Assembly: GCA_000165345.1 (NCBI GenBank)
Contig: CM000435.1
Span: forward strand, 544,001-608,000
Reading direction: 5' to 3'
Length of the DNA stretch: 64,000 nucleotides
The translations under genes and the position numbers were made by a program. The notes under the pieces were generated by a model. That model had not been told where the DNA came from. It searched no databases and worked only from the letters and a program-made list of their open reading frames with translations. Below are positions 5,624 to 42,968 of this stretch, piece by piece (the first letter of the stretch is position 1; every line of letters starts with the position of its first letter).

Positions 5624-6022
<399 letters not shown>

Positions 6023-6805
6023 CTAGTTTAAAAACAAACTTTCTATTAACAACTTCAATGATAATTCGTCTTGCTTTGAAGCAATTTACTGTCAAGCCCG
6101 CATCTTTTCCGTGTTGAGTTCCTTAGACTATGGCGTCTCGGAGTCTCGTCTTCTGGCGGGTCGTGCTAAATACCTTTTAAAACTTCTTTCTATAGTAACT
6201 GAGTGATTCTTCTTCTTATTCTAGATCAATTATATTTTGTAATCATTTTAGAATTTATATATTTTGAGACTGCCATCTGCGCATTTATCTATGGCATGAA
6301 TCCCAGGGTTTCATCGGACTTTCATGATGGAAACTGAAACTAAAACTGAGTGTTTATACAAGTTTCACAACTTGTACTAAGCAATATTCATGCCGACATT
6401 AAACATAATTGGTGACATTTTGTTTTACATTGCCACCTCAAAGGAGTAATCAGGACCCAATTATTAATCATTTGAGTTATTGAGGTAGTTATTGCTCCTA
6501 AATATTTTTATTCACTTCATTTGAGAAGCCAGATGTTTATGAGATTTCTTAAAATAGATAGGCCAGTCTAGTTATATGTCTTTACTAATATGTTCAATTC
6601 CGAATGATATTGTTTTCTTCTCTAGGCTAAATTTAATTTCTTCTATTGAACTGCATTCCCGCTCGATCCTTCATACATTTCCTTGACCTGCTGAATATTT
6701 TCTGTAGAAATGATAGATTTATTATTCAAACAAATAGTTGGATAATAAAATAAATTAATGATTATAACTATAGTTCAATTGTATTAACTTCTGTTTTTAA
6801 GCTAA

Positions 6806-7542
6806 ATGGTATGTCAAAAAAGTCCACTGAAGATTTTTATTATTAATTTGCAGGGTGTAGCTAAAAGAACTAGAAAATTTGCAGCGGTGAAACGCATTTT
6901 GAACCCCAATGATAGTAGAGTTAAACAGTAAGTTAACCAAGAAGTTCACTTTCAGCAAATATTTCAATTTCATGTAGAAATAAGCAAAGTAACAAAGTAG
7001 ATGCCCGCAATGATAGTAATGATAAACTAAGAGAAGTGTAAGTTTTAAAACTATTAAACCGTTCTTAATAATATTCCTTTAGGCCAAATGTACCTTCTAG
7101 CTTGTTTTTCAATTATAACAATAATTTGGGCCCTCCCTTCCACATCCTACTCGATACCAATTTTATTAACTTTTCTATACAGCATAAACTAGATATATTT
7201 AAGGGAACAATGGATTGCCTCGTAGCTAAGTGTATCCCTTGCATTACTGATTGTGTAATAGGGGAACTCGAAAAGATGGGTCACCGTTACAACTTGGCTT
7301 TGAAACTAGCTAGAGATCCCAGATTCAAACGTCTGCACTGTCTGCATAAAGGGACTTATGCGGACGATTGCATAGTGCAAAGAGTAACTGAACATAAATG
7401 TTACATAGTGGGAACGAATGATACCGAACTAAAGAGGCGCATACGTAGAATACCAGGCGTCCCAATAATGTATGTTACCAACCATAAATATTCGATTGAG
7501 AGACTACCGGAATCACTAGTCTCTGTTCCGCTGAAAAAGTAG
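6806..7542 (+). CDS. FCF1: rRNA-processing PIN-domain protein Fcf1/Utp24. The 4-exon model is join(6806..6808,6854..6927,6978..7037,7083..7542) and gives 198 aa.
   Basis: The track ORF 7102..7542 starts at a TTG and encodes only the PIN domain (FHILLDTNFINF...DCVIGELEKMG...KGTYADDCIV...KCYIVGTNDTELKRRIRRIPGVPIMYV). The conserved Fcf1 N-terminus MGVAKRTRKFAAVKRILNPNDSRVKQ lies upstream. It joins in frame through three short introns: GTATGT..CAG 45 nt, GTAAGT..TAG 50 nt and GTAAGT..TAG 45 nt. Exon 1 is the ATG alone. Total length equals human FCF1. Intron 1 is a 45-nt stop-free multiple of three, so read-through cannot be excluded from sequence alone. Confidence 0.7.
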
Positions 7543-27372: not shown

Positions 27373-27793
27373 ATGGTGAGTTGTCTTTGGAGAAAACAAT
27401 ATATAAGATCACTATTAAGCTAGATAGCAGGTAAATAAACTATTAAGGACATTTAGGCCTATCTTTGATAGGGTACTGGTACAGAGAATACATCCAAAAG
27501 CTGTCACGAAAAGCGGAATTTTACTTCCTGAGTCAATAAATAAGGGAGGCAAAGGTTTCTTTATGGCAAAGGTGTTGTCAACTGGAACTGGGAAAATAAA
27601 TCAGTTTACAGGTGAATATAATAAATGTCTCTTGAAACCCGGAGATACAGTGATTGTTCCAGAATATGGTGGAATTCATATTCAACAATTTTACGAAGAA
27701 GTTAATCATGGGACTTCATTAGATTTAATGGTTTATAAAGAAGAAGATATTTTGGGTATTTTTGAAAACGATAGTAAGAATAATGTCAATTAA
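27373..27793 (+). CDS. HSP10: Mitochondrial/mitosomal chaperonin Cpn10 (Hsp10). The 2-exon model is join(27373..27375,27431..27793) and gives 121 aa.
   Basis: The track ORF 27563..27793 is only the C-terminal half. Reading upstream in frame gives FRPIFDRVLVQRIHPKAVTKSGILLPESINKGG...AKVLSTGTG...PGDTVIVPEYGG, the GroES mobile-loop/roof pattern. An in-frame TAG at 27425 lies just inside the intron. ATG(27373)|GTGAGT...AG(27430)|GTAAATAAA... restores the N-terminus M-VNKLLRTFRPIFDR. Confidence 0.7.
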
Positions 27794-29459: not shown

Positions 29460-29807
29460 TCACTCTTCACCTGCTTCGTTACTAATATTGAAGTACCTAA
29501 CTTCATAGGAACCTTTGCTTGTTGCAACTACACGTAGAAAGTCTCTAATTTGTTGTTTCTTAAGGTATTTCTTAGTTAGATACTTTAGGTATCTCTTTGA
29601 CATTGGAACTTCGCTCAATACAGTAATACGACCCTTTTGGCGAGAGATCTGAATCTTCGTGCCTAGCTGTCCGCACTTACCATCCACTTTTATGCGATCA
29701 TGGAAGAACTTCTCGAGCCCAGATGCATCGATGATATTATCTTGCATAGGAGCAGTGCAGTCAACAATGAAACGTTGAGTTTTATGAGCCTTTGTTATAG
29801 GAGCCAT
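29460..29807 (-). CDS. RPL22: 60S ribosomal protein L22 (115 aa)
   Basis: [44 protein letters not shown]...[46 protein letters not shown] is a near-colinear match to L22e. The conserved start is the internal ATG at 29807; the track ORF adds 10 upstream codons. Confidence 0.9.
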
Positions 29808-42208: not shown

Positions 42209-42441
42209 CTATCTTCTTAAGTCAAGTATTTCGAATTAGAAACTTTTTATAATTATCGCATTCATGTTTTCGATAGACTTTTATATTTCAGAATTTTGAT
42301 TTATATTAGATTAGTTTTTTTGAATGTTTTATTATTGCCCAAGGTCGTTTATATTATTGCTATGCATTTGTTTCGCGGTTTACTTTGTATTGTGGAGATC
42401 AAAACTTAAATATACGAATTCTGCCAGATTTATCCAGATTC

Positions 42442-42968
42442 ATGGTAAAACGTAAGTAAAATTGTTGACTTACTTTCAGGCTTAATAATAACTTTGTAGA
42501 TAAAAAAAGACGTAAGAATCGTTCTGATGACGATGACTGTAAGTTGTTAGAAAACTTTGATATTTTTTAACCATGATTTTTGTTAGCTGAGGACTATATG
42601 GACGATTCTTTCCGTGGAAACTCAAGCATAAGCATTAGCAATAACAAAAAGGAGCGAAAGGAAATTTCATTAGTATTAGCAGAGGATGATCAAGACAATG
42701 AAAGGTGAGTAAAATTTTTTTAGTTTTGTACTTTTTAAAATCAAATTAATTAAATAGAAAGGTTAAATGGTCGAATATTGTAGTTGGCCCTTCCAAAACA
42801 CCCCCAAAAAAATTTTGTGTAATATGCGGTTTTATTGGCAAATATAAATGCTACAAGTGCTTTAAATGCAGACCCAACTCTATCGTAAGATATGTTTGCT
42901 CTCACAAGTGTGATATACTACACAAAGAAATCGATTGTTGCAAACCCAAAAATCTTTTTATTTGGTGA
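42442..42968 (+). CDS. Zinc-finger HIT-domain protein (ZNHIT1/Vps71-like). The 4-exon model is join(42442..42451,42500..42538,42587..42704,42758..42968) and gives 125 aa.
   Basis: Absent from the ORF track. The terminal exon encodes NIVVGPSKTPPKKFCVICGFIGKYKCYKCFKCRPNSIVRYVCSHKCDILHKEIDCC, a zf-HIT pattern (compare ZNHIT1 FCAVCGFPSPYTCVSCGARYCTVRCLGTHQETRC). Upstream exons give MVKHKKRRKNRSDDDD... and ...KKERKEISLVLAEDDQDNE. They are joined by GTAAGT..TAG introns of 48, 48 and 53 nt with all phases consistent. Total length is 378 nt. Confidence 0.65.

Follow-up and report, generated by a model that had tools for sequence, protein, structure and literature searches.

A start-codon intron, probably ancestral, in the Fcf1/Utp24 gene of Cryptosporidium parvum

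We analyzed a stretch of 64,000 nt of DNA (the window, to which positions refer unless another sequence is named) belonging to C. parvum chromosome 7 and identical by 100% over 6737 nt to GCA_035232765.1 CP141124.1. The gene located at 6806-7542 is almost certainly an ordinary four-exon Fcf1/Utp24 gene, in which the intron directly behind the start codon and intron 3 would be ancestral and from which Cryptosporidium would have lost all introns 3' of codon 46. An earlier note on this DNA had proposed that the N-terminus of Fcf1 is hidden upstream of a long open reading frame and had suggested that the start-codon intron reflects a habit of the lineage. Below, the gene structure, a spliced contig, the protein family, and the age of the introns are described, and alternative readings are weighed.

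Exon-intron structure of the fcf1 gene

As the earlier note had stated, the list of open reading frames shows only a TTG-initiated ORF of 146 aa encoding the PIN domain (7102-7542). The N-terminal 46 codons of Fcf1 are located upstream of this ORF and are joined to it via three short GT-AG introns (Table 1). The proposed model comprised three introns of 45-50 nt, starting with GTATGT or GTAAGT, ending with YAG, and having consistent phases, and it predicted a protein of 198 aa; both the annotation and a spliced contig described below agreed with it to the base, and the phases were found to be 0, 2, and 2. The joined exons form a CDS of 597 nt, which encodes a 198-aa protein with the N-terminus MGVAKRTRKFAAVKRILNPNDSRVKQ / MGVAKRTRKFAAVKRILNPNDSRVKQNKQ. 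The GC content of the three introns is 22-30%.

Intron 1 is canonical (ATG/GTATGT...GCAG/GGT, slashes marking the exon-intron boundaries), and shifts by one base would give GG-CA or TA-GG ends. A total of 69 combinations of GT-AG sites remove 140 nt and leave the frame open, the first listed being the proposed model; among the combinations listed (6 of 69), the five alternatives to this model start with MVCQKSPLKIFIINLQ. The exon-intron pattern of fcf1 lies far beyond chance.

Table 1. Positions of the parts of the fcf1 gene and of the Cpn10 gene in the window
Feature	Position	Strand	Description
Fcf1 leader, 5' untranslated part of exon 1 (minimum extent)	6727..6805	+	79 nt with which the spliced contig begins, colinear with the window
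Fcf1 start codon ATG	6806..6808	+	last 3 bases of exon 1, its only coding bases
Fcf1 intron 1, start-codon intron	6809..6853	+	45 nt, phase 0, GTATGT...TTAATTTGCAG, 3' end GCAG
Fcf1 exon 2	6854..6927	+	74 nt, codons 2-25 and two bases of codon 26 (GVAKRTRKFAAVKRILNPNDSRVK-Q)
Fcf1 intron 2	6928..6977	+	50 nt, phase 2, GTAAGT...TCATGTAG, 3' end GTAG
Fcf1 exon 3	6978..7037	+	60 nt, lysine-/asparagine-rich linker (Q)NKQSNKVDARNDSNDKLRE(V)
Fcf1 intron 3	7038..7082	+	45 nt, phase 2, GTAAGT...TTCCTTTAG, 3' end TTAG
Fcf1 exon 4	7083..7542	+	PIN/Fcf1 domain to stop codon TAG 7540-7542; includes the TTG ORF 7102-7542
Cpn10/GroES gene	27373..27793	+	ATG 27373-27375; intron 27376-27427 (52 nt, GTGAGT..GATAG); exon 2 27428-27793

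Known annotation and its history

Proteins identical in 198 of 198 residues are deposited as QOY40546.1, KAL5367545.1, and WKS78917.1 from C. parvum and as TRY50733.1 from a genome which, judging from its accession prefix, presumably belongs to C. tyzzeri. The title of QOY40546.1 is 'rRNA-processing protein Fcf1/Utp23', that of KAL5367545.1 is 'hypothetical protein CPHLJ_7g2290'. The AT-rich DNA, introns of about 45 nt, and the GTATGT donor would also have suited Pneumocystis, a candidate rejected because the protein search led to C. parvum. The current GenBank models contain the same protein and the same gene span as the proposed model and do not differ from it; since the identical protein is already deposited, the hand-built model reproduces the current annotation. 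Hence, the fcf1 gene model is correct and already known. A search of the literature for cgd7_2290, a CryptoDB name that we derived from the tag CPHLJ_7g2290, returned no paper.

Older models are shorter. The Iowa II protein XP_001388385.1 is a 156-aa 'partial' sequence starting with YSFRPNVPSS and represents the raw ORF extended back into intron 3, while C. hominis TU502 XP_667393.1 and a C. ubiquitum protein comprise 110 aa and start with MDCL. The upstream exons seemed hidden because of these models. Upon re-annotation, the intron-bearing share of C. parvum genes increased from 4.3% to 10.8% (PMC4637869); a later re-annotation by Baptista et al. repaired many N-termini, and all of its introns are stated to be supported by RNA-seq (PMC8744675).

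A spliced contig and the 5' leader

Contig NODE_10611 of ENA ERZ21845938, which has a length of 676 nt, matches window 6727-7542 without a single mismatch, and its alignment contains exactly three gaps. It is string-identical to the joined segments 6727-6808, 6854-6927, 6978-7037, and 7083-7542, and the fcf1 gene translates uninterrupted in it. The junction at intron 2 is unambiguous; those at introns 1 and 3 permit a shift of one base, with GT-AG ends occurring only in the proposed placement. Apparently, the contig is RNA-derived and represents spliced mRNA, because it is devoid of introns and carries the native leader. Its coverage is low (5.3x), and since its 3' end coincides exactly with the stop codon, it does not represent an mRNA of full length. 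The comparison with cDNA across 6800-7110 that the earlier note had suggested is provided by a contig of presumed RNA origin, and the match to the model is exact. Additionally, a 28-mer spanning the junction of exons 1 and 2 was scanned against JGI metagenome contigs and gave 0 matches.

In the contig, 79 nt colinear with the genome precede the ATG; therefore, exon 1 comprises at least 82 nt, and transcription may start upstream of 6727. The earlier note had described a first exon of 3 nt. This holds for the coding part, which consists of the ATG only and is followed by GT, but not for the exon as a whole: as an uninterrupted leader of at least 79 nt precedes it, the ATG is not a free-standing micro-exon.

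The leader contains a uORF of 9 codons (MIITIVQLY*; 6758-6787 including its stop codon) ending 18 nt upstream of the main ATG. The ATG of this uORF is kept in the presumed C. tyzzeri, in C. meleagridis, and in the chipmunk genotype and is absent from distant species. Divergently from fcf1, the ubiquitin-L40 gene is located on the minus strand at 5624-6010. Mean intergenic lengths reported for C. parvum are 552-589 nt; the intergenic region 6011-6805 exceeds them with its 795 nt, at least 79 nt of which are taken by the fcf1 leader. A scan of the entire window at Rfam gathering thresholds found 0 families, and no signal of a snoRNA or other RNA was obtained in or near the fcf1 introns or in 6011-6805.

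The protein belongs to the Fcf1/Utp24 family

Fcf1/Utp24 of yeast and human is a PIN-domain endonuclease of the SSU processome and carries out early cleavages around the 18S rRNA. Human FCF1 comprises 198 aa, as does the C. parvum protein, and both contain the same basic N-terminal arm and the motifs DTNF, ELEK, YADDC, and TND. The Pfam family Fcf1 (PF04900) was detected with 114.4 bits at a cut-off of 21.4, residues 90-186 covering profile positions 1-99 of 99; furthermore, PIN_9 (PF18477) matched residues 67-176 with 34.5 bits at a cut-off of 26.3. The alignment to Fcf1 orthologues proposed in the earlier note pairs residue 1 with residue 1: human FCF1 (PDB 7mq8 chain SL) is colinear over its residues 1-192 (E 6.4e-83) and yeast Utp24 (PDB 5wlc chain SL) over its residues 1-187 (E 2.1e-75). 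An N-terminus of the form M-G-x-x-K-x-T-R-K is common to the three proteins from residue 1, and the acidic residues of the PIN motifs LLDTNF, GELEKMG, TYADDC, and GTNDTEL are the same in human and yeast. PDB 7d4i shows YANDC in place of the YADDC motif, apparently a deliberate substitution in the catalytic site. In comparison with the human/yeast system, the linker of the C. parvum protein (residues 27-45) is shorter by 2 residues and rich in N/S. Identity to animal, fungal, and chromerid Fcf1 orthologues in a protein search was 60-68%.

The paralogue Utp23, a PIN-like protein of the processome, belongs to the same fold family and was found by the same query (4mj7_A, 9g25_K). However, it matched only residues 53-187 with E-values of 2e-07 to 1e-06, whereas Fcf1/Utp24 matched end to end, which argues for an orthologue of Fcf1/Utp24 and against Utp23. 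Judged by sequence, the gene can be assigned as the single-copy C. parvum Fcf1/Utp24 orthologue, with a predicted function as pre-rRNA endonuclease of the SSU processome.

Conservation within Cryptosporidium

Six orthologous loci were compared with the window, and a search of GT-AG combinations yielded exactly one model for each annotated protein. All seven Cryptosporidium genomes contain three fcf1 introns at the same positions, with intron 1 directly following the ATG (Table 2); ATG/GT is present in C. muris, too. The splice signals are those typical of the genus, in which GTAAGT begins 84% of the introns (PMC2483917). The Fcf1 protein is 99% identical in C. hominis, 97% in C. meleagridis, 95% in chipmunk genotype I, 89% in C. 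ryanae, 88% in C. bovis, and 84% in C. serpentis. At the nucleotide level, the introns have diverged further than the exons: exon 2 and intron 1 are 97% and 72% identical to the chipmunk genotype and 79% and 59% identical to C. ryanae, respectively.

Table 2. Introns of fcf1 in seven Cryptosporidium genomes
Genome	Source	Introns 1 / 2 / 3 (nt)	5' splice site of intron 1
C. parvum	window	45 / 50 / 45	GTATGT
C. tyzzeri (presumed)	GCA_007210665.1 PYHZ01000007.1	46 / 50 / 46	GTATGT
C. meleagridis		46 / 50 / 47	GTATGT
Chipmunk genotype I		46 / 55 / 50	GTACGT
C. ryanae		44 / 62 / 58	GTGAGT
C. bovis		44 / 49 / 62	GTAAGT
C. serpentis		60 / 65 / 75	GTATGG

Over 6.7 kb, the genome presumed to be C. tyzzeri shares 97.4% identity with the window, and the Fcf1 proteins encoded by the two are the same. 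In both intron 1 and intron 3, the two sequences are set apart by an indel of 1 nt within an A-run (46 versus 45 nt), which constitutes a natural test of frame for the intron calls.

For C. muris RN66 (DS989731.1), the deposited Fcf1 protein XP_002141397.1 starts with MKFLGKIKRTRKF (MKFL...). This model uses a start exon of 12 nt at 1501-1512 of the C. muris locus, a weak GTAGAA donor, and an intron of 156 nt. The same locus contains the genus-conserved ATG/GTATGA (ATG at 1607-1609) and an acceptor TTAG/GGG at 1668/1669, which together would give MGKIKRTRKF, the start seen in C. serpentis. In the deposited C. muris protein, the N-terminus is probably mis-annotated, and the deposited C. andersoni model (MSSVKGKIKRTKKF, MSSVK...) is probably wrong as well. 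Deposited Fcf1 N-termini that look wrong thus comprise those of C. muris and C. andersoni, besides the 110-aa truncations of C. hominis TU502 and C. ubiquitum.

Intron positions outside the genus

For the chromerid Vitrella brassicaformis and a bovid, the exact exon-intron structure of FCF1 was solved, with 10 and 7 introns, respectively. C. parvum, Vitrella, and the bovid have introns 1 and 3 at the same position and in the same phase, with intron 3 located in the I/V codon before P..SSLFF (Table 3). The phase-0 intron after codon 1 in both Vitrella and bovid FCF1 argues that the start-codon intron of fcf1 is of ancestral and not of lineage-specific origin. Intron 2 of C. parvum is located exactly 6 nt downstream of its Vitrella and bovid equivalent and has the same phase. 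Because of this offset, its orthology is less certain; the offset may reflect a small shift of the splice sites ('intron sliding') or an indel in the low-complexity linker.

Table 3. Introns 1-3 of C. parvum FCF1 and their equivalents in Vitrella and a bovid
Gene	Intron 1	Intron 2	Intron 3
C. parvum FCF1	phase 0, ATG/GTATGT	codon 26, phase 2	phase 2, RE/V-PNVPSSLFF
Vitrella FCF1	phase 0, ATG/GTGAGA	equivalent codon 24, phase 2	phase 2, KD/I-PLASSSLFF
Bovid FCF1	phase 0, ATG/GTGAGA	equivalent codon 24, phase 2	phase 2, RE/V-PQHPSCLFF

Introns of phase 0 between codons 1 and 2 were described as a class in vertebrates, arthropods, fungi, and plants, where they are enriched (PMC1626468). They are over-represented in genes for short, lysine-rich, serine-poor, conserved, and often ribosome-related proteins; their positions are unusually well conserved, for instance between human and fly, and ATG/G resembles a proto-splice site (PMC1626468). 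The composition of Fcf1 (198 aa, 9.6% K, 4.5% S) fits this class of proteins, and so does that of Cpn10 (122 aa, 9.0% K, 4.1% S).

Cpn10 and other genes of the window

The earlier note had recognized the same ATG-only arrangement in the Cpn10 gene, and rightly so: the ATG is directly followed by GTGAGT and an annotated intron (Table 1). The gene was detected by tblastn at 27431-27766, and a unique GT-AG model yields the annotated 122-aa product, MQVNKLL..., identical to QOY40558.1. A tandem NAGNAG acceptor (window 27421-27431) with TAG at 27427 and CAG at 27430 closes the Cpn10 intron. The TAG is used in the C. parvum and C. hominis models (122 aa, MQVNK...). For C. meleagridis, the 121-aa model protein (MVNKLL...) points to an acceptor 3 nt downstream, where the window has the CAG at 27430.

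The annotation of the window lists about 41 genes; seven of them contain introns, and ATG/GT is found in two of these seven, namely fcf1 and Cpn10. The resolvable introns have lengths of 41-57 nt. The shortest one is the single intron of a 233-aa alpha/beta-hydrolase gene (56395-57137, minus strand), which comprises 41 nt at 56519-56559 (GTAAGT..TTCTAG). For an annotated gene of 151 aa at 42364-42968 on the plus strand, no simple GT-AG model gave the stated length, and the range begins with GCATTTG... and not with ATG; it may include UTR, or the gene model may be unusual. A search of the window with the pattern ATG followed by GT[AG]NG[TA] and a long downstream ORF gave three matches, of which only Cpn10 is real. 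The ATG at 29683 was rejected because it lies within RPL22e, a gene without introns (348 nt = 116 codons), and a weak GTAGGA site was rejected because it lies inside the intron-less RNase PH gene.

Alternative readings

Could the N-terminus be read differently? In C. parvum, intron 1 might not, or not always, be removed: ORF 6806-6931 is open through it, and as these 45 nt are in frame (a multiple of three in this genome) and free of stop codons, a retained mRNA would encode the full protein plus 15 residues, i.e., a 213-aa isoform MVCQKSPLKIFIINLQ-GVAKRTRK... However, the segment 6809-6853 is missing from the spliced contig, the M-G-x-x-K-x-T-R-K start is conserved at residue 1 in human and yeast, and the intron has 46 nt in the near-identical presumed C. 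tyzzeri genome. Read-through of intron 1 leads to a stop codon or a frameshift in 6 of 6 other Cryptosporidium genomes, and the 213-aa sequence is absent from a collection of about 15 billion proteins; therefore, retention is not a conserved coding option. We consider it highly improbable that intron 1 stays in the mRNA. Regulated retention producing a second, N-terminally extended Fcf1 isoform of 213 aa appears very unlikely, as does the more general idea of a start-codon intron kept to link splicing with the initiation of translation of this ribosome-biogenesis factor; the evidence is compatible with a minor intron-1-retained isoform in C. parvum alone, and nothing supports regulation. A start further downstream, for which the TTG of the 146-aa ORF and Met88 (MDCL...) are the two candidates, would agree with the older models devoid of the N-terminus (156 aa in XP_001388385.1, 110 aa in XP_667393.1 and C. 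ubiquitum) and would turn the upstream similarity into a decayed remnant. Yet the 156-aa model is merely the raw ORF entering intron 3, and the DTNF motif would be missing from the 110-aa protein. Purifying selection acts on the upstream exons throughout the genus; they occur spliced in NODE_10611 and align residue for residue with the solved human and yeast structures; furthermore, initiation at TTG is unexpected in a eukaryotic nuclear gene. A downstream start is therefore next to impossible.

ATG/GT could be a habit specific to Cryptosporidium, as the earlier note had suggested, through recent insertion of introns or a preference for sites behind start codons. Two genes within one 64-kb window, fcf1 and Cpn10, show this arrangement, and the likeness of ATG/G to a proto-splice site would favor such insertion (PMC1626468). 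Against this, the same intron is found in Vitrella and bovid FCF1, so that for fcf1 it is older than the lineage; an enrichment of start-codon introns is described for vertebrates, arthropods, fungi, and plants (PMC1626468); and 5 of the 7 intron-bearing genes of the window do not start with ATG/GT, four solved or candidate models starting with ordinary coding sequence. A lineage habit is thus unlikely, and the suggestion was not borne out: the intron after codon 1 belongs to a pan-eukaryotic class.

Discussion

We regard the locus as an ordinary four-exon fcf1 gene with ancestral 5' introns. Gene structure, spliced product, intron conservation, and protein family were observed directly, whereas the nuclease function is predicted from yeast and human Utp24 and the reason for intron retention is inferred. 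Exon 1 consists of a leader of at least 79 nt ending in the AUG, and three short spliceosomal introns of the U2-type GT-AG kind (45, 50, and 45 nt) are removed. Upon splicing, the AUG comes to stand before GGU, the codon of Gly2, and the basic N-terminal arm (residues 1-46) is joined to the PIN domain encoded by the last exon. Introns 1 and 3 would have been kept from the ancestral eukaryotic gene at the position and in the phase found in a chromerid and a mammal, and all introns 3' of codon 46 would have been lost in Cryptosporidium, corresponding to the 5'-biased retention that is usual in intron-poor genomes.

The biological significance is small, as the gene model is already contained in GenBank and the intron type is of textbook level. 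The case can serve as a positive control, with a four-exon model rebuilt by eye that had been missed by 2004-era annotation; coding first exons consisting of ATG only are still a blind spot of gene predictors.

Compared with known systems, Cryptosporidium Fcf1 keeps the three 5'-most introns, whereas the bovid gene has 7 and the Vitrella gene 10, and its introns have 45-50 nt in C. parvum as opposed to 0.5-5 kb. It would represent a clear instance of a parasite poor in introns in which only the 5'-most of the ancestral introns persist, at sites that mammals have in common with it. Intron 1 resembles the class described by Nielsen & Wernersson 2006 (PMC1626468) in being a phase-0 intron directly after the ATG of a gene for a short, conserved protein; its length of 45 nt is unusually short, and that study covered groups other than the apicomplexans.
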